From NCBI RefSeq assembly GCF_053078305.1, contig NZ_CP166879.1: DNA of 64,000 nt, one strand, 5' to 3'. Made by a program: the position numbers and the translations under genes. The first letter of the stretch is position 1; each line of letters opens with the position of its first letter. Below are positions 8,949 through 61,798 of the stretch, in pieces. Below the pieces are notes generated by a model. That model worked only from the letters and a program-made list of their open reading frames with translations. It was not told the DNA's origin and did not search any database.

Positions 8949-9317
8949 GTCGACAGGGAGTCAGACAACGAAGTGAACATCAGGATGATGACACTTCTGA
9001 AGGACACACCAGGATGGTGTTTCAGGGAAAGGCTTCTGGATGAAGCGAAGAGGATGACGCAGGACGCGTTAAAGGACACCTCCAGGATGGAGAATGAGAA
9101 CCGGTCAGGATGATCCGGTGGGTCAGGAAGGCCAGGGACACTTCAGGATGAAGTATCACATCGGGGTGGTGTGAGCAGGAAGCAATAGTTCAGGATGAAC
9201 GATTGGCCGCAAGGCCAGAGGAAAAGTTGTCAAGGATGAGCAGGGAGCAACAAAAGTAGCTGGAATGCTGCGAAACGAACCGGGAGCACTGTGAATACAG
9301 TGCTCCCTTTTTTTATT
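8949..9317 (+). ncRNA. csrB: CsrB small RNA (CsrA-sequestering)
   Basis: About 370 nt non-coding stretch with many CAGGATG / AGGA(T)G GGA-motifs spaced every 15-30 nt; ends in hairpin GGGAGCACTG...CAGTGCTCCC plus T7 run at 9282-9314. Confidence 0.92.
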
Positions 9318-19822: not shown

Positions 19823-22057
19823 ATGGTTGCGGTAAGAAGTGCACATATCAATAAGGCTGGTGAATTTGATCCGGAAAAATGGATCGCAAGTCTGGGTATT
19901 ACCAGCCAGAAGTCGTGTGAGTGCTTAGCCGAAACCTGGGCGTATTGTCTGCAACAGACGCAGGGGCATCCGGATGCCAGTCTGTTATTGTGGCGTGGTG
20001 TTGAGATGGTGGAGATCCTCTCGACATTAAGTATGGACATTGACACGCTGCGGGCGGCGCTGCTTTTCCCTCTGGCGGATGCCAACGTAGTCAGCGAAGA
20101 TGTGCTGCGTGAGAGCGTCGGTAAGTCGGTCGTTAACCTTATTCACGGCGTGCGTGATATGGCGGCGATCCGCCAGCTGAAAGCGACGCACACTGATTCT
20201 GTTTCCTCCGAACAGGTCGATAACGTTCGCCGGATGTTATTGGCGATGGTCGATGATTTTCGCTGCGTGGTCATCAAACTGGCGGAGCGTATTGCTCATC
20301 TGCGTGAAGTAAAAGATGCGCCGGAAGATGAACGCGTACTGGCGGCAAAAGAGTGCACCAATATCTACGCGCCGTTGGCAAACCGTCTTGGGATTGGGCA
20401 ACTGAAATGGGAGCTGGAAGATTACTGCTTCCGTTATCTCCACCCGACCGAATACAAACGCATCGCAAAACTGTTGCATGAACGCCGTCTCGACCGCGAA
20501 CACTATATCGAAGAGTTTGTCGGTCATCTGCGCGCTGAGATGAAAGCTGAAGGCGTTAAAGCTGAAGTGTATGGTCGTCCGAAACACATCTACAGCATCT
20601 GGCGCAAAATGCAGAAAAAGAACCTCGCCTTCGATGAGCTGTTTGATGTGCGTGCGGTACGTATTGTCGCCGAGCGTTTACAGGATTGTTATGCCGCACT
20701 GGGGATAGTGCACACTCACTATCGCCACCTGCCGGATGAGTTTGACGATTACGTCGCTAACCCGAAACCAAACGGTTATCAGTCTATTCATACCGTGGTT
20801 CTGGGGCCGGGTGGAAAAACCGTTGAGATCCAAATCCGCACCAAACAGATGCATGAAGATGCAGAGTTGGGTGTTGCTGCGCACTGGAAATATAAAGAGG
20901 GCGCGGCTGCTGGCGGCGCACGTTCGGGACATGAAGACCGGATTGCCTGGCTGCGCAAACTGATTGCGTGGCAGGAAGAGATGGCTGATTCCGGCGAAAT
21001 GCTCGACGAAGTACGCAGCCAGGTGTTTGACGACCGGGTGTATGTCTTTACGCCGAAAGGTGATGTCGTTGATTTACCTGCGGGATCAACGCCGCTGGAC
21101 TTCGCTTACCACATCCACAGTGATGTCGGACACCGCTGTATCGGGGCAAAAATTGGCGGGCGCATTGTGCCGTTCACCTACCAGCTGCAAATGGGCGACC
21201 AGATTGAAATTATCACCCAGAAACAGCCGAACCCCAGCCGTGACTGGTTAAACCCAAACCTCGGTTACGTCACAACCAGCCGTGGGCGTTCGAAAATTCA
21301 CGCCTGGTTCCGTAAACAGGACCGTGACAAAAACATTCTGGCTGGGCGGCAAATCCTTGACGACGAGCTGGAACATCTGGGGATCAGCCTGAAAGAAGCA
21401 GAAAAACATCTGCTGCCGCGTTACAACTTCAATGATGTCGACGAGTTGCTGGCGGCGATTGGTGGAGGGGATATCCGTCTCAATCAGATGGTGAACTTCC
21501 TGCAATCGCAATTTAATAAGCCGAGTGCCGAAGAGCAGGACGCCGCCGCGCTGAAGCAACTTCAGCAAAAAAGCTACACGCCGCAAAACCGCAGTAAAGA
21601 TAACGGTCGTGTGGTGGTTGAAGGTGTCGGTAACCTGATGCACCACATCGCGCGCTGCTGCCAGCCGATTCCTGGAGATGAGATTGTCGGCTTCATTACC
21701 CAGGGACGCGGTATTTCAGTACACCGCGCCGATTGCGAACAACTGGCGGAACTGCGCTCCCATGCGCCAGAACGCATTGTTGACGCGGTATGGGGCGAGA
21801 GCTACTCCGCCGGATATTCGCTGGTGGTCCGCGTGGTGGCTAATGATCGTAGTGGGTTGTTACGTGATATCACGACCATTCTCGCCAACGAAAAGGTGAA
21901 CGTACTTGGCGTTGCCAGCCGTAGCGACACCAAACAGCAACTGGCGACCATCGACATGACCATTGAGATTTACAACCTGCAGGTGCTGGGTCGCGTGCTG
22001 GGTAAACTCAACCAGGTGCCGGATGTTATCGACGCGCGTCGGTTGCACGGGAGTTAG
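19823..22057 (+). CDS. relA: GTP pyrophosphokinase ((p)ppGpp synthetase I)
   Basis: 744 aa RelA/SpoT family; immediately upstream of mazEF. Confidence 0.93.
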   Translation: MVAVRSAHINKAGEFDPEKWIASLGITSQKSCECLAETWAYCLQQTQGHPDASLLLWRGVEMVEILSTLSMDIDTLRAALLFPLADANVVSEDVLRESVGKSVVNLIHGVRDMAAIRQLKATHTDSVSSEQVDNVRRMLLAMVDDFRCVVIKLAERIAHLREVKDAPEDERVLAAKECTNIYAPLANRLGIGQLKWELEDYCFRYLHPTEYKRIAKLLHERRLDREHYIEEFVGHLRAEMKAEGVKAEVYGRPKHIYSIWRKMQKKNLAFDELFDVRAVRIVAERLQDCYAALGIVHTHYRHLPDEFDDYVANPKPNGYQSIHTVVLGPGGKTVEIQIRTKQMHEDAELGVAAHWKYKEGAAAGGARSGHEDRIAWLRKLIAWQEEMADSGEMLDEVRSQVFDDRVYVFTPKGDVVDLPAGSTPLDFAYHIHSDVGHRCIGAKIGGRIVPFTYQLQMGDQIEIITQKQPNPSRDWLNPNLGYVTTSRGRSKIHAWFRKQDRDKNILAGRQILDDELEHLGISLKEAEKHLLPRYNFNDVDELLAAIGGGDIRLNQMVNFLQSQFNKPSAEEQDAAALKQLQQKSYTPQNRSKDNGRVVVEGVGNLMHHIARCCQPIPGDEIVGFITQGRGISVHRADCEQLAELRSHAPERIVDAVWGESYSAGYSLVVRVVANDRSGLLRDITTILANEKVNVLGVASRSDTKQQLATIDMTIEIYNLQVLGRVLGKLNQVPDVIDARRLHGS

Positions 22058-22070
22058 GCAGAAATTTGCT

Positions 22071-22118
22071 CGTATCTACAATGTAGATTGATATATACTG
22101 TATCTACATATGATAGCG
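22071..22118 (+). promoter_or_regulatory. mazEF promoter region with alternating palindrome
   Basis: ATCTACA-A-TGTAGAT palindrome followed by overlapping TATCTACATATGATAG repeats, 15-60 nt upstream of mazE. Confidence 0.6.
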
Positions 22119-22134
22119 GTTTGAGGAAAGGGTT

Positions 22135-22383
22135 ATGATCCACAGTAGCGTAAAGCGTTGGGGAAATTCACCGGCGGTGCGGATCCCGGCTACGTTAATG
22201 CAGGCGCTCAATCTGAATATTGATGATGAAGTGAAGATTGACCTGGTGGATGGCAAATTAATTATTGAGCCAGTGCGTAAAGAGCCCGTATTTACGCTTG
22301 CTGAACTGGTCAACGACATCACGCCGGAAAACCTCCACGAGAATATCGACTGGGGAGAGCCGAAAGATAAGGAAGTCTGGTAA
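22135..22383 (+). CDS. mazE: Antitoxin MazE
   Basis: 82 aa AbrB/SpoVT-like ORF; stop overlaps mazF start. Confidence 0.92.
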
Positions 22384-22718
22384 TGGTAAGCCGATACGTA
22401 CCCGATATGGGCGATCTGATTTGGGTTGATTTTGACCCGACAAAAGGTAGCGAGCAAGCCGGACATCGTCCGGCTGTTGTCCTGAGTCCGTTCATGTACA
22501 ACAACAAAACAGGTATGTGTCTGTGTGTTCCTTGTACAACGCAATCAAAAGGATATCCGTTCGAAGTTGTTTTATCCGGTCAGGAACGTGATGGCGTAGC
22601 GTTAGCTGATCAGGTAAAAAGTATCGCCTGGCGGGCAAGAGGAGCAACGAAGAAAGGAACGGTTGCCCCAGAGGAATTACAACTCATTAAAGCCAAAATT
22701 AACGTACTGATTGGGTAG
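22383..22718 (+). CDS. mazF: Toxin MazF (ACA-specific mRNA interferase)
   Basis: 111 aa PemK/MazF family; mazE-mazF-mazG order after relA. Confidence 0.92.
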   Translation: MVSRYVPDMGDLIWVDFDPTKGSEQAGHRPAVVLSPFMYNNKTGMCLCVPCTTQSKGYPFEVVLSGQERDGVALADQVKSIAWRARGATKKGTVAPEELQLIKAKINVLIG

Positions 22719-22789
22719 GTGTTACTAACTCACTTCTATTCTGGTCACAGGTTTCCACCTGACAGACCCGCAATTTTCAGGACATTCTA

Positions 22790-23581
22790 ATGAATCAAAT
22801 CGACCGTTTGCTCACTATTATGCAGCGCCTGCGCGACCCGGAAAACGGCTGCCCGTGGGATAAAGAGCAGACATTTTCTTCTATTGCGCCTTACACCCTT
22901 GAAGAAACCTACGAGGTGCTGGACGCTATTGCCCGCGAAGACTTTGACGATCTGCGCGGTGAACTCGGCGATCTGCTGTTCCAGGTGGTGTTTTACGCAC
23001 AAATGGCTCAGGAAGAAGGGCGCTTTGACTTTAATGATATTTGCGCTGCGATTAGCGATAAATTAGAGCGTCGCCATCCGCATGTTTTTGCTGACAGTTC
23101 TGCCGAAAACAGTAGTGAAGTGCTTGCCCGTTGGGAGCAAATCAAAACCGAAGAGCGCGCGCAGAAAGCGCAGCATTCGGCGCTGGACGATATTCCTCGT
23201 AGTTTACCGGCTTTAATGCGTGCGCAAAAAATCCAGAAACGTTGCGCCAACGTTGGCTTCGATTGGACGACGCTTGGTCCGGTAGTCGATAAAGTCTACG
23301 AAGAGATCGACGAGGTGATGTACGAGGCACGGCAGGCTGTTATCGACCAGGCTAAACTGGAGGAGGAAATGGGTGACCTGCTGTTTGCCACGGTCAATCT
23401 GGCTCGTCATTTAGGGACAAAAGCGGAAATCGCATTGCAAAAAGCGAACGAAAAATTCGAGCGTCGTTTTCGCGAAGTGGAGCGTATTGTTGCCGCGCGT
23501 GGATTGGAAATGACAGGTGTTGACCTCGAAACAATGGAAGAAGTCTGGCAACAGGTAAAACGGCAGGAAATTGATCTCTAA
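22790..23581 (+). CDS. mazG: Nucleoside triphosphate pyrophosphohydrolase MazG
   Basis: 263 aa with tandem MazG domains. Confidence 0.9.
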   Translation: MNQIDRLLTIMQRLRDPENGCPWDKEQTFSSIAPYTLEETYEVLDAIAREDFDDLRGELGDLLFQVVFYAQMAQEEGRFDFNDICAAISDKLERRHPHVFADSSAENSSEVLARWEQIKTEERAQKAQHSALDDIPRSLPALMRAQKIQKRCANVGFDWTTLGPVVDKVYEEIDEVMYEARQAVIDQAKLEEEMGDLLFATVNLARHLGTKAEIALQKANEKFERRFREVERIVAARGLEMTGVDLETMEEVWQQVKRQEIDL

Positions 23582-23594
23582 GGGAATTACGCGG

Positions 23595-23637
23595 TCAAGC
23601 GCCATTTGTGTCATTTTTTAAATGACAAGCGCTTGAT
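23595..23637 (+). terminator. Bipartite hairpin after mazG
   Basis: TCAAGCGC...GCGCTTGA outer stem and TGTCATTT...AAATGACA inner stem, followed by T-rich run. Confidence 0.45.
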
Positions 23638-23793
23638 TTGCGTCAAAAACATTTACCCCAAAGGGGCTATTTTCTCACTCCTGATTTCAATAGTGCGCTG
23701 GCGAAGAGGAGGGATAATGAAAGTTTGTGGCACAGGTCATGTTCGGGTATACTGCTTTCCCGTCCTGGTTATTCCATCGTCTTTTCAACCTAA

Positions 23794-25446
<1,653 letters not shown>

Positions 25447-26891: not shown

Positions 26892-27785
26892 TTACCAGCG
26901 ACCGGACGCGCCGCCACCGCCAGAAGAACCGCCCCCGCCGCTAAATCCGCCGCCACTTGAGCCTCCACCGGAAGAGGATGAAGAAGAACTTTTTCTTGAA
27001 GCTCTTTCTTTACTGAGTTTTTTGTATTTGGCGCGTAGCTTTTTATTGACGATAAGCCAAAAAATAACCAGTGGTACGCTCGCAAAAGGCGTTAACATAC
27101 CGCAGGCAACGATTAAATTGGTCCATGGTCCTGGCTCGGCAACATAGAGGAATACCATCCCGTAAATGGCGCCAGTGAGAGTGATCCAGGGTAAATTCGA
27201 CGGATCGGTAAAAACAATAAAATATGAAAGTACCGCCAGCAATATAATTACAGCAAGCGATAATGGAATAGGGGGATTGATACTGTAATAATCCCCCTTG
27301 TCTTCCGATAATTCACCATTCAACAGAAGCGCGCCGATATTTTCGCTTGCCAGTGTTAATCCACCCATCAGGTCATCACTTTTGAAGGCAGGGATCAATA
27401 TATCCCTGATAATCTTCGCCGCTTGCAGGTCGGTAACCACCCCTTCCAGCCCGTAGCCAACCTCAATACGAACAGCATGATCCTCCCAGGCAACCAGAAG
27501 TAAAATACCATCGTTTCTCTGCTTATCTCCCAGTTTCCAGCTATCAAAAACGCGTGTTGCATATTGTTCAATGGAATCGTCTCCGGTGGACGGCACTACT
27601 AATACAGCGACCTGCGCCCGTGTTTTATGTGTAATATCCTGCAGTTGCTGTGTCAGTGATTGTTGTTCAGAAGTGCTTAACGTACCAGTAATATCGGTCA
27701 CCTGTTGGCGCAGCTCCGGCACAGCAATTTGCTGGGCAAGCCCAGGAAGGCACCACAAAGTGAATAGAATAAAGATTAAGCGCAT
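26892..27785 (-). CDS. TPM-domain membrane protein, paralog 1 (YgcG-like)
   Basis: ATG at 27785 (ORF track uses TTG at 27797); signal peptide, TPM-like domain, C-terminal TM segment and Gly/Ser-rich tail ending SGRW. Confidence 0.75.
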   Translation of the reverse strand: MRLIFILFTLWCLPGLAQQIAVPELRQQVTDITGTLSTSEQQSLTQQLQDITHKTRAQVAVLVVPSTGDDSIEQYATRVFDSWKLGDKQRNDGILLLVAWEDHAVRIEVGYGLEGVVTDLQAAKIIRDILIPAFKSDDLMGGLTLASENIGALLLNGELSEDKGDYYSINPPIPLSLAVIILLAVLSYFIVFTDPSNLPWITLTGAIYGMVFLYVAEPGPWTNLIVACGMLTPFASVPLVIFWLIVNKKLRAKYKKLSKERASRKSSSSSSSGGGSSGGGFSGGGGSSGGGGASGRW

Positions 27786-27790
27786 TACGA

Positions 27791-28939
27791 TCACCAACGG
27801 CCGGATGAACCGCCGCCTCCTGAAGAACCGCCACCACCGCGGAAAGAATTTCTCGACGAAGAGCGAGAATGAGCATTACGATTCCCCGTTTTCCTGTTGC
27901 TTTTTTCTCCTGACCCCAGCTTAAGATTGCCAGTAAATTTGGCCACAATGATCAGCAGAACGATGCCAGCAATGGTTATTGGGCCGATAAAATGATCAAT
28001 TAACCCAATAATTGTTGAGATGAATGCAATATCTTTATTACTGGCGAACACCAGGCACCATCCCACAATAATTATCAGCATCACGACAAACAATGAATTT
28101 CGTCCTGATTCACGAACCTGCGGAGTCTTCTTTTGTTTTTTCACTTTAGCGTTTTTATTTTTTGGGGCCAGCATCATAGGAAATACGCGGCACAAATTAA
28201 AAACTACCGCGAGACGCTGCTTGCAGGTTGTTGCTAACAATAAACTAAAACAAACGACCGATACCCGCCGAATGATGACATCGTCCTGAAAGGAGAAAAA
28301 CCAGACCATAGGGGTAATCATCGATATCATCCATATGCCACGCCGTGGGCGGCTGGCAAATCGCCAGAGGACAACGATGGCAACGATCATCAGCAGTGTC
28401 CAGGCAAGACATGGCAGCGAACGTTGCGGATTAGCAAACAGATGATTGGCTAAAGCATCCAAAGGGCTAAGGTTCGCTTTGATATGGGTAAACTGTGCGA
28501 TGCTTTCAATTCCGCCCGTTAATCCAGCAAAGAGATTGTTTTTTTCGAATTCTGGCTGCATATGGTAACGAACAATTTGCGCAGCTTGTTCCGGCGGCAA
28601 CATCTCTTCCAGTCCATGTCCAATCTTCATTGACGCCAGCCCTTCCGGCCATACGACGAGAATTAAGATACCTTCGCCATATCGCTTCTCTCCAACGGGT
28701 TTCCAGTGATATACCCCGTATCTCTGCGAGGCTGCAAGTTTAATGTTTTTGCCCCCTGTGGTCGGCGTAACCAACACGGCCACCTGGAAGTGGTTTTGCT
28801 GCTCGAGAGTCTGTAATTGTTGAGTTAAAGCAGTTTGTTCTTCTGTCGTTAATGTCCCGGTTAAGTCATTCACTGAAGGCAATCGTTCAGCGAATACCTG
28901 AAAACTGCATAGCATCAGAAGTAAGAGAAAAATACGCAT
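27791..28939 (-). CDS. TPM-domain membrane protein, paralog 2, with extended multi-TM region
   Basis: 382 aa; signal peptide, TPM-like domain, about 5 hydrophobic helices, Gly/Ser-rich tail ending SGRW. Confidence 0.72.
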   Translation of the reverse strand: MRIFLLLLMLCSFQVFAERLPSVNDLTGTLTTEEQTALTQQLQTLEQQNHFQVAVLVTPTTGGKNIKLAASQRYGVYHWKPVGEKRYGEGILILVVWPEGLASMKIGHGLEEMLPPEQAAQIVRYHMQPEFEKNNLFAGLTGGIESIAQFTHIKANLSPLDALANHLFANPQRSLPCLAWTLLMIVAIVVLWRFASRPRRGIWMISMITPMVWFFSFQDDVIIRRVSVVCFSLLLATTCKQRLAVVFNLCRVFPMMLAPKNKNAKVKKQKKTPQVRESGRNSLFVVMLIIIVGWCLVFASNKDIAFISTIIGLIDHFIGPITIAGIVLLIIVAKFTGNLKLGSGEKSNRKTGNRNAHSRSSSRNSFRGGGGSSGGGGSSGRW

Positions 28940-28956
28940 ATCAATTCCTTTTGTTA

Positions 28957-29847
28957 CTAGCGCCCGGAAGCGCCACCGCCACCAGATGAACCGCCACCAC
29001 CGCTGAAATTGTCATTGTTGAATGAAGAGGATGACGATGATGAATAGTGGGAGGAAGAATTGCTTCTTGTATGGCGTGATGGCTGGTTGACATCACGCAT
29101 CAAATCCCGAACTTTTTTGCCGAAGGGAGTAACAGCGATGGCGACAGCCAGGAACGGTGTGGCGAAGCAGAGTAATGTTGCGAGTACTCCCCAGCTTCCG
29201 CTGAAGCCTGCTATAGGTAAAACAAAGGCCAGTACAATAGCTGCGAAGCAAATTACTCCCAGCGTTTTGATATATCCTCTGGCAGAAATAAACGTCAGTA
29301 CTATCGCCCAGACTAACAATGCCCACCAACCGCTAAAGGGCAAAGGGTGATCGGTCGGTGTAATCGTTGCTAAATTATTCCCCGTCAGACGACTTTCAAG
29401 ATCGCTGATCCCCTTTTGTAAACCGACAGCAAGGTCGCCTTTTTTAAATGCAGGAATAATATTGTTGCGAATAATTTTCCCGGACTGCGCATCCGTAATA
29501 ATACCTTCCAGTCCGTAACCGATTTCAATACGCACGGTATGATCCTGCCAGGCGACTAACAGTAGAACGCCATTATCGCGGTCTTTATCACCCGGTTTCC
29601 AGCTATCGAATACCCGCGTTGCGTACTGCTCGATGGTTTCATCGCCTGTTGTATCAACCACTAACACGACCAACTGTGCGTGGTTTTTTTGCGTCAGGGC
29701 TTTAATCTGGTTGGTCAGGGTGTTTACTTCGCTGTTTGTTAATGTGCCGGTTAAGTCATTCACATACTTGGGGGATTCAGGTACTGGAATTTGTGTGGCA
29801 AACACAGATGAACAGAAGAAAGCCATAAGGAAGATAAAATTTCGCAT
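28957..29847 (-). CDS. TPM-domain membrane protein, paralog 3 (YgcG-like)
   Basis: ATG at 29847 (MRNFIF...); about 55 percent identical to paralog 1 by eye over the TPM domain; Gly/Ser tail ending SGR. Confidence 0.75.
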   Translation of the reverse strand: MRNFIFLMAFFCSSVFATQIPVPESPKYVNDLTGTLTNSEVNTLTNQIKALTQKNHAQLVVLVVDTTGDETIEQYATRVFDSWKPGDKDRDNGVLLLVAWQDHTVRIEIGYGLEGIITDAQSGKIIRNNIIPAFKKGDLAVGLQKGISDLESRLTGNNLATITPTDHPLPFSGWWALLVWAIVLTFISARGYIKTLGVICFAAIVLAFVLPIAGFSGSWGVLATLLCFATPFLAVAIAVTPFGKKVRDLMRDVNQPSRHTRSNSSSHYSSSSSSSFNNDNFSGGGGSSGGGGASGR

Positions 29848-29860
29848 AGAACTTCCCCGC

Positions 29861-30463
29861 TTAATGAGCATTAGCATTCTGGCTAAAATCTATTGTTGGG
29901 GCTTTACTTACTGCGGTGACATCATCCGGCAAATAATTTTTCTTTGGTGTGTAATCCATGACCTTTGCGGTTAATACAGCGGGGAATTTGCGGATAGTGA
30001 CATTATATTGTTCAATGGCTTTAATATATCTTCCTCGCGCAACGGCAATTCTATTTTCACTTCCTTCGAGCTGTACCATTAAGTTTTGATAGAGCTCTTG
30101 AGCCTTTAACTCAGGGTAACGCTCACTAATTATCGTTAACTGACCGAGAGTGCGAGTCACCTGCGCCTGGGCCTGTTGCCAGGCTTGTAATTTTTGTGCA
30201 TCTCCCGGAGCTTGCTGAAGATCGCTGCTGGCGCGATTAGCCTGGCTACGAGCCAATGTTACGGCTTCCAAAACGTCTTTTTCATGGCTGGAATAACCTT
30301 TAATACTGGCGACAAGATTAGGAATAAGATCGGCGCGACGTTGATATTGATTCAATACCTCAGACCAGGAGGCGTTAACCTGCTCATCATAGGTTTGAAT
30401 ATCGTTATATCCACAGCCTGATAAATTGAAAATAAATATAATTACGATGAATATTCTGAGCAT
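29861..30463 (-). CDS. LemA-family lipoprotein
   Basis: 200 aa; N-terminal signal with lipobox-like LSGC; LemA-like coiled region; first gene of 4-gene minus-strand operon. Confidence 0.7.
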   Translation of the reverse strand: MLRIFIVIIFIFNLSGCGYNDIQTYDEQVNASWSEVLNQYQRRADLIPNLVASIKGYSSHEKDVLEAVTLARSQANRASSDLQQAPGDAQKLQAWQQAQAQVTRTLGQLTIISERYPELKAQELYQNLMVQLEGSENRIAVARGRYIKAIEQYNVTIRKFPAVLTAKVMDYTPKKNYLPDDVTAVSKAPTIDFSQNANAH

Positions 30464-31645: not shown

Positions 31646-32528
31646 GAGTTCCCCGCGCTAGCGGGGATAAACCGTAATGAGTCAGGGGAATACCGAATAT
31701 TTTATAGAGTTCCCCGCGCTAGCGGGGATAAACCGAAATTTATCGAGATCGGCAGGGGTTACTGACAGAGTTCCCCGCGCTAGCGGGGATAAACCGGCCG
31801 TTAATCCGGACTGCCAGCGAATAACGCTGAGTTCCCCGCGCTAGCGGGGATAAACCGCAACATATTTAAACGATTTAAGCCAGGCATATGAGTTCCCCGC
31901 GCTAGCGGGGATAAACCGGGATTCATCACGCGGTTATCCGGGGGCCGTTAGAGTTCCCCGCGCTAGCGGGGATAAACCGGTGGTTGCGGGGTTATCGGTG
32001 GTAGTCACAATGAGTTCCCCGCGCTAGCGGGGATAAACCGCTCCAGCTCGATATCACACGACGCTATATCAGGAGTTCCCCGCGCTAGCGGGGATAAACC
32101 GGAAACAGCGCCCGCCGGTGCTGCGTTACCGTGGAGTTCCCCGCGCTAGCGGGGATAAACCGCCAACAAACTCATTTGCACTGGATTCGTGGATGAGTTC
32201 CCCGCGCTAGCGGGGATAAACCGACCGGCGCAATTGTTTTTCAGCAGCACCCGGCGAGTTCCCCGCGCTAGCGGGGATAAACCGTATTTTCTTTGTTGCG
32301 GTAGGCAATATCGCCAGAGTTCCCCGCGCTAGCGGGGATAAACCGGTATTTTGTCACGACCAGCACGAGGCCGAATAGAGTTCCCCGCGCCAGCGGGGAT
32401 AAACCGCCCCAACTCATGCCCACATGAAAAACGTTGACGAGTTCCCCGCGCCAGCGGGGATAAACCGCCGCAAAAGGTATTATTTTTATCCGTCAGTACG
32501 AGTTCCCCGCGCCAGCGGGGATAAACCA
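31646..32528 (+). CRISPR. CRISPR array, 15 repeats of 29 bp, 14 spacers of 32 bp (type I-E repeat)
   Basis: Exact 61-bp periodicity; 12 repeats GAGTTCCCCGCGCTAGCGGGGATAAACCG then 3 leader-distal repeats with CCAGCG loop; terminal repeat ends ...AACCA. Confidence 0.97.
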
Positions 32529-35948: not shown

Positions 35949-36266
35949 ATCGTATTCCCATTTGTAATAGACAAAAAAAAGAGAAAAGTAAGCCGCCCTT
36001 TCAGGTGGATTACTTTTCTCAGGTCTCTAGTAATTGCAATAAGAAATAACATGGAAAGCAGAGGTGTTGTGTGAGAGTAATCACGCTTCTGCTTTTTAAA
36101 ACTATTTGATAATGCGAATATCACACTGTGATTACGATCACATTAGCAGTTATGCCCTTATGCTAAAAATTATCTCCAGTTACCAGAGATAATGAGAAAG
36201 GTAACTTCCCTCTCGCGGGGGAAGTTACCTTTCTTTTTTTTTGCCTTACGGAAATTGGAGCTAACT

Positions 36267-37052
36267 ATGTCAATCGAATCTCTCAATGCGTTCTCAATGG
36301 ATTTTTTCTCCCTGAAAGGTAAAACCGCAATTGTTACCGGCGGGAATAGCGGTTTAGGCCAGGCATTTGCCATGGCGTTGGCCAAAGCAGGCGCAAATGT
36401 CTTTATTCCTAGCTTCGTCAAAGATAACGGCGAAACAAAGGAAATGATTGAAAAACAGGGTGTTGAAGTTGATTTTATGCAGGTGGATATCACCGCAGAA
36501 GGCGCGCCGCAGAAGATTATCGCTGCTTGCTGTGAGCGTTTCGGAACAGTTGATATTCTGGTTAACAATGCCGGTATTTGTAAGCTGAATAAGGTGCTGG
36601 ACTTTGGTCGAGCCGACTGGGACCCGATGATTGATGTGAACCTGACCGCCGCATTCGAGTTAAGCTACGAAGCGGCAAAAATTATGATCCCGCAGAAAAG
36701 CGGTAAAATTATTAATATCTGTTCATTGTTCTCTTACTTAGGTGGACAATGGTCACCTGCATATTCTGCCACTAAACATGCTCTTGCCGGATTCACCAAA
36801 GCTTATTGTGATGAACTAGGTCAATATAATATTCAGGTAAATGGTATCGCCCCTGGCTATTATGCAACAGATATTACGCTGGCGACACGCAGTAATCCAG
36901 AAACCAATCAGCGCGTTCTTGATCATATTCCGGCAAAACGTTGGGGCGATACTCAGGATTTAATGGGCGCAGCCGTATTCCTCGCAAGTCCGGCATCGAA
37001 TTATGTCAACGGGCATTTATTAGTGGTTGATGGCGGTTATTTAGTGCGCTAA
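36267..37052 (+). CDS. ygcW: Short-chain dehydrogenase/reductase (KduD/FabG-like)
   Basis: ATG at 36267 gives about 261 aa with TGGNSGLG Rossmann motif; ORF track start 36192 is probably an upstream extension. Confidence 0.8.
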   Translation: MSIESLNAFSMDFFSLKGKTAIVTGGNSGLGQAFAMALAKAGANVFIPSFVKDNGETKEMIEKQGVEVDFMQVDITAEGAPQKIIAACCERFGTVDILVNNAGICKLNKVLDFGRADWDPMIDVNLTAAFELSYEAAKIMIPQKSGKIINICSLFSYLGGQWSPAYSATKHALAGFTKAYCDELGQYNIQVNGIAPGYYATDITLATRSNPETNQRVLDHIPAKRWGDTQDLMGAAVFLASPASNYVNGHLLVVDGGYLVR

Positions 37053-37121
37053 CCCATAACGGTGGTTTCTGTTTTCTCTTATTAATGATTATTCCATTTT
37101 TATTATCAGGAAGGAATTACT

Positions 37122-38576
37122 ATGTCTTTATCTCGCGCAGCGATTGTCGACCAGCTAAAGGAAATTGTTGGTGCAGATCGCGTAATTACCGATGAAACAG
37201 TATTAAAGAAGAACAGTATTGACCGTTTTCGTAAATTTCCGGATATTCATGGTATTTATACTTTGCCGATTCCGGCTGCGGTCGTAAAACTCGGTTCCAC
37301 AGAACAAGTCTCCCGTGTGCTGAATTTTATGAATGCGCACAAAATTAACGGTGTGCCGCGTACCGGTGCTTCCGCCACCGAAGGTGGGCTGGAAACTGTT
37401 GTAGAAAACTCGGTGGTGCTCGACGGTTCCGCCATGAATCAAATCATTAATATTGATATTGAGAATATGCAGGCGACGGCGCAATGTGGCGTTCCGCTGG
37501 AGGTGCTGGAAAACGCGTTGCGTGAAAAAGGTTACACCACGGGGCATTCTCCGCAGTCAAAGCCGCTGGCGCAGATGGGCGGCCTGGTAGCAACCCGCAG
37601 TATCGGGCAGTTCTCCACACTCTACGGCGCAATCGAAGATATGGTCGTTGGTCTGGAAGCCGTATTGGCTGATGGCACCGTCACACGTATTAAAAACGTG
37701 CCACGCCGCGCGGCTGGCCCGGACATTCGTCACATCATCATCGGCAACGAAGGTGCATTGTGCTATATCACTGAAGTAACAGTGAAAATCTTTAAATTCA
37801 CCCCGGAAAACAATCTCTTCTACGGCTATATCCTGGAAGACATGAAAACCGGCTTCAACATCCTGCGTGAAATCATGGTGGAAGGGTATCGTCCGTCGAT
37901 CGCTCGTTTGTATGACGCTGAAGATGGCACCCAACACTTCACGCATTTTGCCGACGGAAAATGCGTGCTGATCTTTATGGCTGAAGGTAACCCTCGCATT
38001 GCGAAGGCGACGGGCGAAGGGATTGCGGAAATCGTTGCCCGCTACCCGCAATGCCAACGCGTGGACAGCAAGCTGATCGAAACCTGGTTTAACAACCTGA
38101 ACTGGGGACCGGATAAAGTGGCTGCCGAACGTGTGCAGATCCTCAAAACCGGCAACATGGGCTTTACTACCGAAGTGTCCGGCTGCTGGAGCTGCATCCA
38201 CAAAATCTACGAAAGCGTTATTAACCGTATTCGTACCGAGTTCCCGCACGCCGACGACATCACTATGCTGGGCGGTCACTCCTCTCATAGCTATCAGAAC
38301 GGCACCAACATGTACTTCGTCTACGACTACAACGTTGTCAACTGTAAGCCGGAAGAGGAAATCGACAAGTACCACAATCCGCTCAACAAAATCATTTGCG
38401 AAGAAACCATTCGCCTCGGTGGTTCGATGGTGCACCACCACGGTATCGGTAAACATCGCGTTCACTGGAGCAAGCTGGAACACGGCAGCGCGTGGGCGTT
38501 GCTGGAAGGGCTGAAAAAGCAGTTCGATCCTAACGGCATTATGAATACGGGTACTATCTATCCGATTGAAAAATAA
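37122..38576 (+). CDS. ygcU: FAD-linked oxidase (alkyl-DHAP synthase / D-lactate dehydrogenase-like)
   Basis: 484 aa, FAD_binding_4-like N-terminal domain. Confidence 0.8.
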   Translation: MSLSRAAIVDQLKEIVGADRVITDETVLKKNSIDRFRKFPDIHGIYTLPIPAAVVKLGSTEQVSRVLNFMNAHKINGVPRTGASATEGGLETVVENSVVLDGSAMNQIINIDIENMQATAQCGVPLEVLENALREKGYTTGHSPQSKPLAQMGGLVATRSIGQFSTLYGAIEDMVVGLEAVLADGTVTRIKNVPRRAAGPDIRHIIIGNEGALCYITEVTVKIFKFTPENNLFYGYILEDMKTGFNILREIMVEGYRPSIARLYDAEDGTQHFTHFADGKCVLIFMAEGNPRIAKATGEGIAEIVARYPQCQRVDSKLIETWFNNLNWGPDKVAAERVQILKTGNMGFTTEVSGCWSCIHKIYESVINRIRTEFPHADDITMLGGHSSHSYQNGTNMYFVYDYNVVNCKPEEEIDKYHNPLNKIICEETIRLGGSMVHHHGIGKHRVHWSKLEHGSAWALLEGLKKQFDPNGIMNTGTIYPIEK

Positions 38577-43958: not shown

Positions 43959-44324
43959 TCATTCGCCGCGATAGATACAACCAGCGGTGCAGGTTTCTTT
44001 TACCATCACCGCACTTAACAGCGGCACAACGGGTTTAACCTGATCCCAAATCCATTTTGCTAAAACTTCGCTAGTTGGGTTTTCCAGACCTGGAATATCA
44101 TTGAGATAATGGTGATCGAGGCGCTCATAAGTTGGCTTAAACGCCGCTTTTAGTTCAGCGAAATCGATAATCCAGCCCGTATGCGGATCGACTTCCCCGG
44201 TAATTTCCAGTCGCACCATAAAGGAATGCCCGTGCAGGCGACCACATTTATGCCCTTTCGGGACGTGTGGTAAGCGGTGAGCGGCTTCGAAGGTGAAATC
44301 TTTAAATAACGTGGTGGACATCAT
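43959..44324 (-). CDS. queD: 6-carboxy-5,6,7,8-tetrahydropterin synthase
   Basis: ATG at 44324 gives 121 aa with PTPS Cys-x-His motifs; ORF track shows longer 149 aa frame. Confidence 0.85.
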
Positions 44325-44639
44325 AATTTCTCTACAGGACGATAAAACCGCCGTAGAGTACCGGAAAGGCTGTTTTTTCGCATTATCTAAAACGACTTTG
44401 TTGCGCAAAATCGCTGATTTATCTTAATGATTGGCTAAATTCATTTGTTTTTCATTAGGTTGGTTAATCTATTTTGTTGTTAAAGACTATTGCTAAAACA
44501 GGTTAGTCGATTTGGTTATTAGTTATCGCTATCCCGTCTTTAATCCACACCGTTCACCCCGTTAACCTTACCTTCTCTTCTGTTTTATGGGCGCTGACAG
44601 GGCGCAGAAACAGCTTTGCTTACTGGAACATAACGACGC

Positions 44640-46439
44640 ATGACGACACAGGTCCCACCTTCCGCGTTGCTTCCGTTGAACCCGGAGCAACTGGCACGCC
44701 TTCAGGCGGCCACGACCGATTTAACTCCCACCCAGCTTGCCTGGGTTTCTGGCTATTTCTGGGGCGTGCTCAATCAGCAGCCTGCTGCGCTTGCAGCAAC
44801 GCCAGCGCCAGCCGCAGAAATGCCGGGTATAACTATTATCTCCGCCTCGCAAACCGGCAATGCGCGCCGGGTTGCTGAAGCATTACGCGATGATTTATTG
44901 ACGGCAAAACTGAACGTTAAGCTGGTGAACGCGGGCGACTATAAATTCAAACAAATCGCCAGCGAAAAACTGCTTATCGTGGTGACGTCAACGCAAGGAG
45001 AAGGGGAACCGCCGGAAGAAGCCGTCGCGCTGCATAAGTTCCTGTTCTCCAAAAAAGCGCCGAAGCTGGAAAACACCGCATTTGCCGTGTTTAGCCTCGG
45101 CGATAGCTCTTATGAATTTTTCTGCCAGTCCGGGAAAGATTTTGACAGCAAGCTGGCGGAACTGGGCGGTGAACGCCTGCTCGACCGTGTCGATGCCGAC
45201 GTTGAATACCAGACCGCTGCCAGCGAGTGGCGCGCTCGCGTGGTTGATGCGCTTAAATCGCGTGCGCCTGTCGCGGCACCTTCGCAATCCGTCGCTACTG
45301 GCGCGGTAAATGAAATCCACACCAGCCCGTACAGCAAAGACTCGCCGCTGGTGGCGAGCCTCTCTGTTAACCAGAAAATTACCGGGCGTAACTCTGAAAA
45401 AGACGTTCGCCATATCGAAATTGACTTAGGTGACTCGGGCCTGCGTTACCAGCCGGGTGACGCGCTGGGTGTCTGGTATCAGAACGATCCGGCACTGGTG
45501 AAAGAACTTGTCGAACTGCTGTGGCTGAAAGGCGATGAACCTGTCACCGTCGAGGGCAAAACGTTGCCTCTGAACGAAGCGCTACAGTGGCACTTCGAAC
45601 TGACCGTCAACACCGCCAACATTGTTGAGAATTACGCCACGCTTACCCGCAGTGAAACACTGCTGCCGCTGGTGGGCGATAAAGCGAAGTTACAGCATTA
45701 CGCCGCGACGACGCCGATTGTTGACATGGTGCGTTTCTCCCCGGCACAGCTTGATGCCGAAGCGCTAATTAATCTGCTGCGCCCGCTGACGCCGCGTCTC
45801 TATTCCATTGCCTCCTCGCAGGCGGAAGTCGAGAACGAAGTACACGTCACCGTTGGTGTGGTGCGTTACGACGTGGAAGGCCGCGCCCGTGCCGGGGGGG
45901 CCTCCAGCTTCCTTGCGGACCGCGTGGAAGAAGAGGGCGAACTCCGCGTATTTATCGAACATAACGATAACTTCCGCCTACCAGCCAATCCAGAAACCCC
46001 GGTGATTATGATTGGCCCAGGCACCGGTATCGCGCCGTTCCGCGCCTTTATGCAGCAACGTGCTGCCGATGAAGCACCGGGTAAAAACTGGCTGTTCTTT
46101 GGCAACCCGCATTTTACGGAAGATTTCCTCTACCAGGTGGAGTGGCAGCGCTACGTCAAAGAGGGTGTGCTGACACGTATCGATCTCGCCTGGTCGCGCG
46201 ATCAAAAAGAAAAAGTTTACGTACAAGACAAACTACGCGAACAGGGCGCGGAGCTGTGGCGCTGGATCAATGACGGTGCCCACATTTATGTCTGCGGCGA
46301 CGCTAATCGCATGGCGAAAGACGTTGAGCAGGCACTTCTGGAAGTGATTGCCGAATTTGGTGGTATGGACACCGAAGCGGCGGATGAATTTTTAAGTGAG
46401 CTGCGCGTAGAGCGCCGTTATCAGCGAGATGTCTACTAA
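44640..46439 (+). CDS. cysJ: Sulfite reductase [NADPH] flavoprotein alpha subunit
   Basis: 599 aa, flavodoxin plus FAD/NADPH domains. Confidence 0.95.
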
Positions 46440-48151
46440 TGAGCGAAAAACATCCAGGGCCTTTAGTGGTCGAAGGAAAACTGACAGACGCCGAGCGCAT
46501 GAAGCTTGAAAGCAACTACCTGCGCGGCACCATTGCGGAAGATTTAAACGACGGTCTGACCGGCGGCTTTAAGGGCGACAACTTCCTGCTGATCCGCTTC
46601 CACGGCATGTATCAGCAGGATGACCGCGACATCCGCGCCGAACGTGCTGAACAGAAGCTGGAGCCGCGCCACGCGATGCTGTTGCGCTGCCGTCTGCCGG
46701 GTGGGGTGATTACCACTAAACAGTGGCAGGCGATAGACAAATTTGCCGGTGAAAACACCATCTATGGCAGCATTCGCCTGACCAACCGCCAGACGTTTCA
46801 GTTCCACGGCATTCTGAAAAAGAACGTCAAACCGGTGCACCAGATGCTGCACTCGGTTGGTCTTGATGCGCTGGCGACCGCTAACGACATGAACCGTAAC
46901 GTACTCTGCACCTCGAACCCTTACGAGTCGCAGCTACACGCGGAAGCGTATGAATGGGCGAAGAAAATCTCTGAACATCTGCTGCCGCGTACCCGCGCGT
47001 ATGCGGAGATCTGGCTCGATCAGGAAAAAGTCGCCACCACTGATGAAGAACCGATCCTCGGCCAGACCTACCTGCCGCGTAAATTCAAAACCACGGTAGT
47101 GATCCCGCCACAGAACGATATCGATCTGCACGCCAACGACATGAACTTCGTGGCGATCGCCGAAAACGGCAAGCTGGTGGGCTTTAACCTGTTGGTGGGC
47201 GGTGGGCTTTCCATCGAACACGGCAACAAGAAAACCTACGCCCGCACCGCGAGTGAGTTTGGCTATCTGCCGCTAGAGCATACGCTAGCGGTGGCGGAAG
47301 CCGTCGTGACAACTCAGCGTGACTGGGGTAACCGAACCGATCGTAAAAATGCCAAAACCAAATACACGCTGGAGCGCGTGGGGGTTGAGACGTTTAAAGC
47401 GGAAGTGGAGCGTCGCGCGGGGATCAAATTTGAACCGATCCGTCCGTATGAGTTCACCGGACGCGGAGATCGTATTGGCTGGGTTAAGGGCATTGATGAT
47501 AACTGGCACCTGACGCTGTTTATCGAAAATGGTCGCATCCTTGATTATCCGGGGCGTCCGCTGAAAACCGGCCTGCTGGAGATCGCGAAGATCCACAAAG
47601 GTGATTTCCGCATTACGGCGAACCAGAATCTGATCATCGCCGGTGTGCCGGAAAGCGAGAAAGCGAAGATCGAGAAGATCGCCAAAGAGAGCGGGTTAAT
47701 GAATGCCGTCACGCCGCAGCGTGAAAACTCAATGGCCTGCGTCTCGTTTCCGACTTGCCCGCTGGCGATGGCGGAAGCGGAGCGTTTCCTACCGTCTTTT
47801 ATCGACAACATCGATAATTTAATGGCGAAACATGGTGTTAGCGATGAGTATATCGTGATGCGTGTAACAGGCTGCCCGAACGGTTGTGGTCGCGCGATGC
47901 TGGCGGAAGTGGGCCTGGTGGGTAAAGCGCCGGGTCGCTACAACCTGCATCTTGGCGGCAACCGTATTGGGACACGTATCCCACGGATGTATAAAGAAAA
48001 CATCACCGAGCCGGAAATCCTGGCGTCGCTTGATGAACTGATAGGGCGCTGGGCGAAAGAGCGCGAAGCGGGTGAAGGCTTCGGCGACTTTACGGTGCGT
48101 GCGGGCATCATTCGCCCGGTGCTCGATCCGGCGCGCGATTTGTGGGATTAA
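46439..48151 (+). CDS. cysI: Sulfite reductase [NADPH] hemoprotein beta subunit
   Basis: 570 aa; start overlaps cysJ stop (TAATG). Confidence 0.95.
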
Positions 48152-48163
48152 CCATCAGCCCGG

Positions 48164-48206
48164 TCTTGTAGGCCTGATAAGACGCGTGAGCGTCGCATCA
48201 GGCAAG
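48164..48206. repeat. REP element between cysI and cysH
   Basis: CTTGTAGGCCTGATAAGACGCG...CGCATCAGGC palindrome. Confidence 0.7.
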
Positions 48207-48224
48207 GCAAACAGTGAGGAATCT

Positions 48225-48959
48225 ATGCCCAAACTCGATCTAAACGCCCTGAACGAACTGCCGAAGGTAGATCGCATTCTGGCGCTGGCAGAAACTAACG
48301 CCCAACTGGAAAAACTGGACGCTGAAGGCCGCGTAGCCTGGGCGCTGGATAATCTGCCCGGTGAATATGTGCTTTCTTCCAGCTTCGGCATTCAGGCGGC
48401 GGTGAGCCTGCATCTGGTGAATCAGATTCGCCCGGATATTCCAGTGATCCTCACCGATACCGGTTACTTGTTCCCGGAAACCTACCGCTTTATTGACGAG
48501 TTAACGGACAAACTCAAGCTCAACCTGAAAGTGTACCGTGCTACCGAAAGCGCAGCCTGGCAGGAAGCACGCTACGGAAAACTGTGGGAACAGGGCGTTG
48601 AAGGCATTGAAAAGTACAATGACATCAACAAAGTCGAACCGATGAACCGGGCGCTGAAAGAACTTAACGCGCAAACGTGGTTTGCTGGCCTGCGCCGCGA
48701 ACAATCCGGCAGCCGCGCCAATTTACCGGTGCTGGCAATTCAGCGTGGCGTATTTAAAGTGCTGCCGATTATCGACTGGGATAACCGAACTATTTATCAG
48801 TACCTGCAAAAACATGGCCTTAAATATCACCCATTATGGGATGAAGGATATTTATCGGTTGGTGATACCCATACAACCCGTAAATGGGAACCCGGCATGG
48901 CTGAAGAAGAAACGCGTTTCTTTGGCTTAAAAAGGGAATGTGGGTTACACGAAGGGTAA
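48225..48959 (+). CDS. cysH: Phosphoadenosine phosphosulfate reductase
   Basis: ATG at 48225 after GAGGA RBS gives 244 aa; upstream in-frame extension of the ORF-track call runs through the REP element and is not credible. Confidence 0.92.
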
Positions 48960-49223
48960 ATATTGCCGGATAAATTAAACGCCTCTGTCAGAAATGATGG
49001 GGGCGTTTTTATTTTGCGAGCAGCATTCCTGATTTTAAACGTGAACGCCGCTGGAAGAATTAACAGGTATAGAATGGTGTTGGGTGCTTGAGGCTGTCTG
49101 GCGTTAAGCATTCGCGAGGTTCCAGATGGACAAAAGCCCCAGGCGATATTTCTATCAACCTGAGGCCAGCGTTCGAACCTAAGCAATTCGAATGTTAGTC
49201 TCTTCTTTGCAGGGAGGCAAGAC

Positions 49224-49376
49224 ATGCTGACAAAATATGCCCTTGTGGCAATCATCGTACTGTGTTGTACAGTACTGGGATTCACGCTGATGGTAGGCGA
49301 CTCGTTGTGTGAGTTGAGTATCAGAGAACGTGGTATGGAGTTTAAGGCTGTTCTCGCTTACGAATCGAAGAAGTAG
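49224..49376 (+). CDS. hokX: Hok/Gef-family type I toxin (probable hokX)
   Basis: 50-codon ORF, not in the ORF track because under 60 aa; hydrophobic N-terminal TM segment plus conserved Hok C-terminal pattern (LCEL..R...EF.A.LAYESK); followed by a hairpin. Confidence 0.65.
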
Positions 49377-49568
49377 CCACCACGCGGGGGTAAAACCCCG
49401 CGTATTGAATTGTGATGGTTTGGTCTCCTGCACCCTTTTTTAAATTTATATTTTTTATGTGAATATATTGTCTCTATTTATTATTATGAATTTCAAATGA
49501 AAATCATAAATTTATTCACAATATAAATGTTTTATTGGCTGATATATATCACAGATAATTTTTAAAAT

Positions 49569-52268
49569 ATGCGTAAATATCCTTTAAGTTTACTGAAGGA
49601 TAAAAATATTGTGACTTTCTTTGATTTCTGGGGAAAAACCCGACGCGACGAGAAAGAAGGGGGTGACGACTATCACCTTCTTTGCTGGCATTCGCTGGAT
49701 GTGGCCGCGATGGGCTATTTAATGGTTAAAAGAAATTGCTTCGGGCTGGCTGATTATTTTCGTCAATTAGGGATTTCTGACAAGGAACAGGCGGCTCAAT
49801 TTTTCGCCTGGTTGTTGTGCTGGCACGATATTGGAAAATTTGCCCGCTCATTTCAGCAACTTTACCTGCACCCACAACTCAAGGTTCTGGAAGGCGCAAG
49901 AAAGAATTACGAAAAGATCTCTCATTCAACGCTGGGCTACTGGTTGTGGCATCATTATTTAAGTGAATGCGAAGAATTGCTTCCTGCCTCTTCACTCTCT
50001 ACTCGCAAACTTAAACGTGTAATAGCGATGTGGATGCCCATGACTACCGGGCATCATGGTCGGCCCCCTGACCGTATTGATGAACTGGATAATTTTCTGC
50101 CTGAAGACAAAGCTGCCGCACGAGATTTTCTCCTTGAAATCAAGTCACTGTTTCCGCTCATAGAGATTCCCACATTCTGGGATGATGACGAGGGCGTTGA
50201 ACTTTTAAAACAACTTTCCTGGTATATCTCTGCAACAGTCGTACTCGCAGACTGGACGGGTTCGTCAACGCGATTTTTTCCACGCGTCGCACAGACAATG
50301 AATATTAAAGATTACTGGCAGAAAACTTTAGTTCAGGCTCAAAACGCCTTAACCGTCTTTCCTCCAAAAGCAGAAACCGCACCTTTCACCGGAATTAATA
50401 CGCTGTTTCCTTTTATTGAGCACCCGACACCATTACAGCAAAAGGTACTGGATCTGGATATCAGCCAGCCAGGGCCACAGTTATTTATTCTGGAAGATGT
50501 GACTGGCGCAGGTAAAACAGAAGCGGCGCTTATCCTGGCGCACAGGTTGATGGCTGAGAATAAAGCTCAGGGTTTGTTTTTTGGCCTGCCAACAATGGCA
50601 ACGGCCAATGCCATGTACGATCGGCTGGTCAAAACCTGGCTTGCTTTCTTTTCGCCAGAATCCCGCCCCAGCCTGGTGCTGGCACACAGCGCCCGTACAT
50701 TAATGGAACGCTTTAATGAATCACTCTGGTCCGGTGATTTAGTCGGGTCAGAAGAACCGGATGAACAAGCGTTCAGTCAAGGATGTGCAGCCTGGTTTGC
50801 CGACAGTAACAAGAAGGCTTTACTGGCTGAAATTGGCGTCGGCACGCTGGATCAGGCGATGATGGCAGTGATGCCGTTTAAACATAATAATCTGCGGCTT
50901 CTGGGGTTGAGTAACAAAATCCTGCTGGCTGATGAGATCCACGCCTGTGACGCTTACATGTCGTACATTCTTGAAGGGTTGATTGAGCGACAGGTGCGTG
51001 GCGGAAACAGCGTCATTTTGCTTTCTGCTACGTTATCTCAACAGCAGCGCGACAAACTTGTCGCCGCCTTTGCGCGTGGCACAGAGGGCCAGCAAGAAGC
51101 TCCGTTCCTGGAAAAGGATGATTACCCCTGGCTGACGCATGTCACGAAATCCGATGTGCATTCGCACCGGGTAGCGACGCGCAAAGACGTTGAGCGTAGC
51201 GTGAGCGTGGGTTGGCTTCATAGCGAACAAGAATGTATTGCGCGTATCGAATCAGCGGTAAGTCAGGGGAAATGCATCGCCTGGATCCGGAATTCTGTCG
51301 ATGACGCTATTAAGGTTTATCGTCAGTTACTTGCCCGCGGCGTCATTCCTGCTTCCAGCCTTTCACTTTTTCATAGCCGCTTTGCTTTTAGCGATCGCCA
51401 GCGAATTGAAACGGAAACGCTGGCACGCTTTGGTAAAAATTGTAGTTTAAAAAGATCATCTCAAGTCATTGTTTGTACACAAGTAATTGAGCAAAGTGTG
51501 GATATTGACCTGGACGAAATGATCTCCGACCTGGCCCCCATTGATTTGCTGATCCAGCGAGCGGGGCGATTACAACGGCATATTCGTGATATTAATGGTC
51601 AGTTAAAACGTGATGGAAAAGACGAGCGTTCCCCTCCTGAATTGCTGATTCTGGCCCCCGTCTGGGACGACTCTCCGGGTGACGAATGGTTTGGTAGTGC
51701 GATGCGTAACAGCGCATATGTCTACCCCGATCATGGGCGAATCTGGCTGACGCAGCGAGTATTGCGTGAGCAAGGCGCTATTCAGATGCCACACGCAGCC
51801 CGGCTTCTTATTGAATCCGTCTACGGTGAGGACGTGGTAATGCCGGAAGGATTTGCCCGCAGCGAGCAGGAGCAAGTGGGCAAATATTACTGCGATCGCG
51901 CAATGGCTAAAAAGTTTATGCTGAACTTCAGGCCCGGCTATGCCGCCAATATCAACGATTACCTCCCGGAAAAGCTGTCGACACGTCTGGCTGAAGAGTC
52001 TGTTTCCCTGTGGCTGGCTACCTGTATTGACGGTGTGGTGAAGCCTTATGCCAGCGGTGCTCACGCATGGGAAATGAGCGTTGCCAGAGTGCGTCGAAGC
52101 TGGTGGAAAAAACATCGGGATGAATTTTCTTTACTGGAAGGGGAAGCGTTCAGGCAGTGGTGCATTGAACAACGGCAAGATCCGGAGATGGCAAACGTGA
52201 TTTTAGTCACCGATGACGAAAGCTGCGGGTATTCGGCTACGGAAGGATTGATTGGCAAGGTTGATTGA
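49569..52268 (+). CDS. cas3: Cas3 HD nuclease / helicase (type I-E)
   Basis: 899 aa; HD motifs (HSLDVAA, HDIGK), Walker A (GAGKTEAA), DEAH-like box (LADEIHACD); preceded by AT-rich promoter region. Confidence 0.92.
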   Translation: MRKYPLSLLKDKNIVTFFDFWGKTRRDEKEGGDDYHLLCWHSLDVAAMGYLMVKRNCFGLADYFRQLGISDKEQAAQFFAWLLCWHDIGKFARSFQQLYLHPQLKVLEGARKNYEKISHSTLGYWLWHHYLSECEELLPASSLSTRKLKRVIAMWMPMTTGHHGRPPDRIDELDNFLPEDKAAARDFLLEIKSLFPLIEIPTFWDDDEGVELLKQLSWYISATVVLADWTGSSTRFFPRVAQTMNIKDYWQKTLVQAQNALTVFPPKAETAPFTGINTLFPFIEHPTPLQQKVLDLDISQPGPQLFILEDVTGAGKTEAALILAHRLMAENKAQGLFFGLPTMATANAMYDRLVKTWLAFFSPESRPSLVLAHSARTLMERFNESLWSGDLVGSEEPDEQAFSQGCAAWFADSNKKALLAEIGVGTLDQAMMAVMPFKHNNLRLLGLSNKILLADEIHACDAYMSYILEGLIERQVRGGNSVILLSATLSQQQRDKLVAAFARGTEGQQEAPFLEKDDYPWLTHVTKSDVHSHRVATRKDVERSVSVGWLHSEQECIARIESAVSQGKCIAWIRNSVDDAIKVYRQLLARGVIPASSLSLFHSRFAFSDRQRIETETLARFGKNCSLKRSSQVIVCTQVIEQSVDIDLDEMISDLAPIDLLIQRAGRLQRHIRDINGQLKRDGKDERSPPELLILAPVWDDSPGDEWFGSAMRNSAYVYPDHGRIWLTQRVLREQGAIQMPHAARLLIESVYGEDVVMPEGFARSEQEQVGKYYCDRAMAKKFMLNFRPGYAANINDYLPEKLSTRLAEESVSLWLATCIDGVVKPYASGAHAWEMSVARVRRSWWKKHRDEFSLLEGEAFRQWCIEQRQDPEMANVILVTDDESCGYSATEGLIGKVD

Positions 52269-52271
52269 GAT

Positions 52272-54814: not shown

Positions 54815-54828
54815 TAAAGGACTATCTC

Positions 54829-61797: not shown

Positions 61798-61798
61798 G

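Follow-up and report, generated by a model that had tools for sequence, protein, structure and literature searches.

The 64,000-nucleotide stretch of DNA analysed here (the window) carries a two-gene toxin-antitoxin (TA) module directly after relA. The relA gene (19823-22057, plus strand), encoding a GTP diphosphokinase of 744 aa, was recognised by its open reading frame, by the Pfam domains HD_4, RelA_SpoT, TGS, ACT and RelA_AH_RIS and by the relA label given in the matching genomes; the last base of its TAG stop codon is 22057, and relA is the upstream neighbour, lying outside the TA module. A spacer of 77 nt with 35% GC (22058-22134, plus strand), the mazEF promoter/operator region, leads to mazE (22135-22383), coding for the antitoxin and autorepressor (82 aa), and to mazF (22383-22718), coding for the ACA-specific endoribonuclease toxin (111 aa). 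The antitoxin gene lies upstream of the toxin gene, both being on the plus strand in the order by which TA modules are recognised, and they overlap by 1 base, the TAA stop of mazE sharing its A with the ATG start of mazF (TAATG). After a gap of 71 nt comes mazG (22790-23581, plus strand), whose product is a nucleoside triphosphate pyrophosphohydrolase of 263 aa, identified by Pfam PF03819 (134 bits), by the models TIGR00444 and NF007113 (both above cut-off) and by the mazG label in the matching genomes; the ORF list then gives a 545-aa ORF at 23809-25446 on the same strand.

The gene order rlmD-relA-mazE-mazF-mazG-pyrG is that of E. coli K-12, where in strain MG1655 it continues to eno, and in strain 2018-05-2CC the same order is seen along the window's first 47 kb. 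The module shares with K-12 mazEF the upstream relA, the downstream mazG and pyrG and the 1-nt gene overlap, and occupies the canonical position between relA and mazG. A preliminary description of this DNA had claimed a mazEF module directly downstream of relA, with overlapping antitoxin and toxin genes and with mazG following, and all of these points were borne out; of the limits it gave, 22071 immediately precedes the operator's left arm and 22718 closes the mazF stop codon. A tRNA scan found no tRNA in the window, and thus no tRNA-linked island signature.

The alignment to MazE and MazF that had been suggested as a check confirmed both identities. The 82-residue protein is 100% identical over its full length to E. 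coli MazE in the PDB (chains 1MVF_D and 1UB4_C), and the 111-residue protein likewise shows 100% full-length identity to E. coli MazF (3NFC_A, as well as the MazF chains in 5CK9 and 1UB4). Family models agree with this: MazE matched Pfam PF04014 (MazE_antitoxin) with 52.9 bits against a cut-off of 24.7 and the NCBIfam equivalog NF007312 with 196 bits (cut-off 113), while MazF matched PF02452 (PemK_toxin) with 84.8 bits (cut-off 23.1) and the equivalog NF007386 with 227 bits (cut-off 120). MazE has an N-terminal DNA-binding domain of the AbrB/SpoVT type (AbrB-SpoVT swapped-hairpin family), followed by an acidic C-terminal tail, and retains W9, N11 and R16, which are the DNA-contact residues (PMC4803016). 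In MazF the active-site residues E24 and R29 are retained; the E24A mutant has been reported as inactive (PMC5888573). Disrupted reading frames, named in the preliminary description as the observation that would speak against the module, were looked for, and both frames were found intact and full length.

Some related systems resemble mazEF closely enough to be weighed as the identity of the pair, namely the paralogous chpBIK (chpS-chpB) and the plasmid-type pemIK/kis-kid, both of which share folds and Pfam families with mazEF and are matched weakly here through the ChpS and ChpB models and through Kid (1M1F). The chromosomal E. coli paralogue ChpS/ChpB shares with mazEF the two-gene architecture, the Pfam families (MazE_antitoxin/PemK_toxin) and the toxin fold, but it is distant in sequence from MazE and MazF of the window, with 34.6 bits for the ChpS model (NF008463) against a cut-off of 101 and 55.2 bits for the ChpB model (NF007320) against 129, so that neither reaches the level of an equivalog; chpBIK also lies at a different chromosomal locus. 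Kis/Kid (PemI/PemK) of plasmids R1 and R100 includes a homologous PemK/MazF-family toxin, matched with E = 7.6e-9 only, compared with the 100% identity to the MazE and MazF structures and the equivalog scores given above. It is a plasmid addiction module which shares the logic of an unstable antitoxin, yet it is plasmid-borne, whereas megablast of the 648-bp mazEF stretch against 5,426 complete E. coli genomes gave 4,421 matches, every one on a chromosome and not a single one on a plasmid, and the locus sits between relA and mazG. The MazF-family endoribonuclease EndoA of Bacillus subtilis with its upstream antitoxin EndoAI (YdcE/YdcD; PDB 4MDX, 1NE8) is a weaker match still (E about 4e-5); it differs from mazEF in recognition sequence and genomic context. 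Kid itself prefers UA(A/C) as its cleavage site and not ACA (PMC4803016). The ChpB/ChpS and Kid/PemK identities are ruled out by the NCBIfam and PDB scores, and we assign the chpBIK or pemIK reading a virtually nil probability.

The spacer upstream of mazE holds an operator-like arrangement of repeats at 22072-22109, consisting of a left element GTATCTACA (22072-22080), a middle element ATGTAGAT (22081-22088) and a right element GTATCTACAT (22100-22109), the middle element matching each of the outer two as its reverse complement. Of 20,000 mononucleotide shuffles of the spacer, only 6 contained both an inverted repeat (8 nt or longer) and a direct repeat (9 nt or longer), which makes a chance origin unlikely. 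By alignment, every base from 22061 to the mazE start, operator included, is the same as in K-12. For the mazEF promoter an "alternating palindrome" is described, whose middle part can pair with either flank, in the portion of PMC4803016 that cites Marianovsky et al. 2001; the same portion, citing Marianovsky 2001 and Zorzini 2015, describes it as the site to which MazE and MazEF bind, and by that binding the promoters P2 and P3 are repressed. The comparison of palindromes proposed in the preliminary description thus gave identity to K-12 and a match to the published alternating palindrome (PMC4803016); the palindromic operator that it had claimed is present, although it is no simple palindrome, being built of three elements with two alternative pairings. 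From the repeats, the K-12 identity and the published description we assign 22072-22109 as the predicted autoregulatory operator of mazEF.

According to the literature, P2 and P3 lie 13 nt apart with a Fis site upstream (PMC4803016). A promoter-like TAGGCA-16-TACAAT was seen at 22055-22082, but the scan of 21700-23900 did not rise above chance (3 sites against 2.4 expected), and for this reason P2 and P3 were left unassigned on the window. A Shine-Dalgarno-like GAGGAAAGGG stands just 5' of the mazE ATG. A terminator scan predicted no plus-strand terminator in the relA-mazE and mazF-mazG intervals, which is consistent with co-transcription and does not prove it. Co-transcription of mazG, encoding an NTP pyrophosphohydrolase, is mentioned in the part of PMC4803016 that cites Gross et al. 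2006.

Taking together the 100% protein identity, the family models, the synteny and annotation (the genomes matched by megablast annotate the locus as relA / mazE / mazF / mazG) and the K-12-identical operator, we conclude that the locus is the intact chromosomal mazEF (chpA) type II TA module of Escherichia coli, at its usual site in the relA-mazE-mazF-mazG transcription unit (probability about 0.98). It agrees with K-12 MazE/MazF (chpAI/chpAK; b2783/b2782; PDB 1UB4, 1MVF, 3NFC, 5CK9) in every residue of both proteins and in every base of mazE and of the operator. The module is, as the preliminary description had already stated, a known one: it is the textbook E. coli mazEF with trivial allelic differences, and nothing in it is new.

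Those differences are few. The only SNP in the spacer, at 22060 (C in K-12, A in the window), changes a -35-like hexamer from TAGGCC in K-12 to TAGGCA, nearer to the TTGACA consensus. In mazF there are four SNPs, at 22460, 22472, 22490 and 22661, all of them synonymous; a 1-nt G indel directly follows the mazF stop, and a few further changes occur shortly 5' of the mazG ATG. Through the SNP at 22661, AACAG of K-12 reads AACGG in the window and one ACA site is lost, leaving 8 ACA sites in mazF of the window where K-12 is reported to have nine (PMC5888573); mazE has two in the window and in K-12 alike (PMC5888573). MazF has been shown to cut its own mRNA in vivo at these ACA sites (PMC5888573).

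Chromosomal TA loci frequently decay, and one E. coli genome, SW07163, has an interrupted mazEF, in which the query was matched partly and split over two places; the locus could on these grounds be taken for a non-functional remnant. However, the ORFs are full length and identical to active, crystallised proteins, K-12 has the same operator, Shine-Dalgarno region and mazE DNA, and the four differences in mazF are all synonymous. We hold a decayed remnant to be extremely improbable, and at the level of the sequence this candidate is refuted; a silent regulatory defect in mazEF is conceivable.

An ncRNA antisense to mazEF, ameF (b4844), is annotated in K-12 RefSeq at 2911051-2911450. By alignment with K-12, the equivalent position of this RNA (aMEF) is 22024-22423 on the minus strand; from a start at 22423 within mazF it would cover mazE, the operator and the last 34 nt of relA. 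Neither aMEF nor the accessory status of the module discussed below had been brought up in the preliminary description. At the gathering threshold Rfam gave no match at the mazEF locus (in the window it matched only CsrB and sok), and the placement of aMEF thus rests on the K-12 annotation; its expression in this strain is inferred. Van Gundy et al. reported that aMEF raises mazEF expression modestly and independently of RNase III, that its promoter is weak, non-canonical and poorly conserved, and termed it "a functional yet spurious transcript" (PMC8749433). Three of the mazF SNPs (22460, 22472 and 22490) fall within the 75 bp (22424-22498) upstream of the transferred aMEF start. An antisense ORF at 22104-22544 (146 aa, minus strand, TTG start), which begins upstream of the transferred aMEF start (22423), was considered as well and is probably a by-product of the frames of mazE and mazF.

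The three SNPs in the aMEF promoter fragment, the loss of the ACA site at 22661 and the SNP at 22060 might together tune the autoregulation of mazEF differently from K-12, a prospect that we rate as slim. If it were true, the MazE:MazF balance or cell-to-cell heterogeneity could shift; this would amount to ordinary allelic variation within a known system and would not make it a new kind.

Since the proteins are identical to those studied, the published mechanism should transfer to the locus, and RNase activity, neutralisation, proteolysis and regulation are inferred for it in this way (PMC5888573, PMC4803016). MazF would act as a dimeric, ribosome-independent endoribonuclease cutting single-stranded RNA at ACA, and MazE would form an unstable dimer that joins two MazF dimers in a MazF2-MazE2-MazF2 complex and blocks both with its C-terminal tails (PMC5888573). 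MazE and, more strongly, MazEF would bind the alternating palindrome, using the N-terminal domain of MazE, and would repress P2 and P3, both of which Fis would activate (PMC4803016), with aMEF slightly boosting mazEF expression. MazE is expected to be degraded by ClpAP/Lon (PMC5888573, PMC8749433); when its synthesis falls or this degradation rises, free MazF would cleave mRNAs and rRNA precursors, and translation and growth would then halt until MazE is restored. Cleavage of the mazF mRNA by MazF at ACA sites would provide negative feedback.

The megablast search of 5,426 complete E. coli genomes found mazEF in 4,418 of them (81%), with at least 99% identity in 4,090 and best matches of 99.9-100%; about 1,008 genomes (about 19%) do not have it. 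In the same set, the relA and mazG flanks were matched in all genomes but one (5,425). Comparison by blastn and alignment with the ST131 strain EC958 defines the extent of the variable segment: homology ends at 22056 and restarts at 22749, delimiting a mazEF accessory cassette of about 692 bp (22057-22748, plus strand). In EC958 the empty site consists of relA, 95 nt and mazG, a clean absence that is found in other strains too; its relA-mazG spacer opens with a hairpin having a 12-bp stem, GCTGGATATGGC-GTCA-GCCGTATCCAGC, followed by a short T run (858-911 of the EC958 locus). Strains without mazEF and with an undisturbed relA-mazG operon, such as UTI89, were already known (PMC7167474). The GC content of mazEF is 47-49% (35% in the spacer), compared with 54% in relA and 51% in the window. 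mazEF is, then, an accessory insertion between relA and mazG and no fixed part of the stringent-response operon, and an essential role for the host is unlikely, given that relA-mazG stands undisturbed in the about 19% of genomes without it (see also PMC7167474).

What mazEF contributes to the cell is disputed, the proposals being reversible stasis under stress, programmed death, phage exclusion and selfish persistence, and the sequence cannot decide among them. The models based on leaderless mRNAs with specialised ribosomes and on programmed death are contested, and strains with multiple TA deletions showed no fitness defect under many stresses (PMC7167474). According to one reading, mazEF is chiefly a selfish, horizontally inserted addiction cassette lacking an adaptive function for the host, relA-mazG working equally well without it. 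Its absence from about a fifth of the genomes that keep the flanks, its clean borders against the undisturbed EC958 site and its GC content, slightly below that of relA and of the window (particularly in the spacer), all point in this direction, and PMC7167474 argues likewise, also on the basis of the multi-TA deletions. Against it stand the moderate drop in susceptibility to RNA phages conferred by native mazEF and the under-representation of ACA in RNA coliphage genomes (PMC12151602), the higher infection loads of phage P1 upon mazEF deletion (as cited in a passage of PMC7167474), the layered regulation by Fis, aMEF and self-cleavage, and the very high conservation of the module where it is present. 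We regard the selfish reading as tentative, a possibility to be taken seriously that falls short of an even chance.

The phage results just mentioned are also what speaks for a mainly anti-phage role, by restriction of RNA phages (PMC12151602) or in a manner resembling abortive infection, with the P1 results cited in that passage of PMC7167474 and with the ADP-ribosylation of MazF by T4, cited in a passage of PMC4803016; a type I-E CRISPR-Cas locus, moreover, lies about 27 kb away. The published effects are only moderate, though, E. coli strains have the module at one fixed place, between relA and mazG, and a scan with PADLOC-DB v2 gave no match to MazE, MazF or MazG at E <= 0.001, which lends no support to listing the module among catalogued defence systems. 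The 27 kb between mazEF and hok/cas3 are filled with housekeeping genes (pyrG, eno, queE, cysJIH), and for that reason mazEF, hok/sok and CRISPR-Cas are a co-occurrence and not a defence island. A mainly anti-phage role, which would suit the defence inventory of the preliminary description, we consider unlikely.

The preliminary description had also called the module relevant to an inventory of stress and defence systems beside a hok-like toxin and CRISPR-Cas in the same 64 kb. Both of the latter are indeed there. A hok/sok type I TA system lies between cysH and cas3 at 49082-49376 (plus strand), comprising the sok RNA (49082-49239, plus strand; Rfam RF01794, 111.7 bits) and an intact Hok/Gef ORF of 50 aa (49224-49376, plus strand). 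The type I-E CRISPR-Cas locus occupies about 49600-59500 of the window, with a full cas operon (cas3, casA-E, cas1, cas2; by homology to strain JX21CE8) and one CRISPR array (about 58580-59457). A second array, with queE and ygcE on either side, is located at about 31706-32040; it has no cas genes beside it, and its 29-nt repeat is closely related to that of the first. A functional-looking type II TA module can accordingly be entered beside these two systems in an inventory of the region, but the label of defence is a soft one for mazEF, with no PADLOC match and moderate effects on phages (PMC12151602). It is worth recording that the module is an accessory insertion, overlaps an annotated aMEF, goes uncounted by PADLOC and has a disputed role; the value of this is bookkeeping only, and no open question is made more testable by the locus.

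Other observations were made elsewhere in the window. The region 44000-64000 had a best match of 98.4% over 20 kb among the 5,426 complete E. coli genomes, against 99.9-100% for the mazEF region, and the part containing the cas genes is the more divergent one. A full-length CsrB small RNA (Rfam RF00018, 384 bits) is encoded at 8958-9317 on the plus strand, between syd and yqcC. Downstream of eno, on the minus strand at 26892-29877, there are three tandem paralogous ORFs of 301, 382 and 306 aa which have similar N-terminal regions, hydrophobic stretches of membrane-spanning appearance and Gly/Ser-rich C-terminal tails (...GGGGSSGGGGASGRW). For the segment 26842-28963, blastn yielded no match longer than 200 bp in 2018-05-2CC, a closely related strain with a TPM-domain pseudogene and a LemA gene in its place. 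The same strain is missing a further 1.25 kb (36207-37459) and has a gene for an FAD-binding oxidoreductase annotated there as truncated; this gene is presumably intact in the window.
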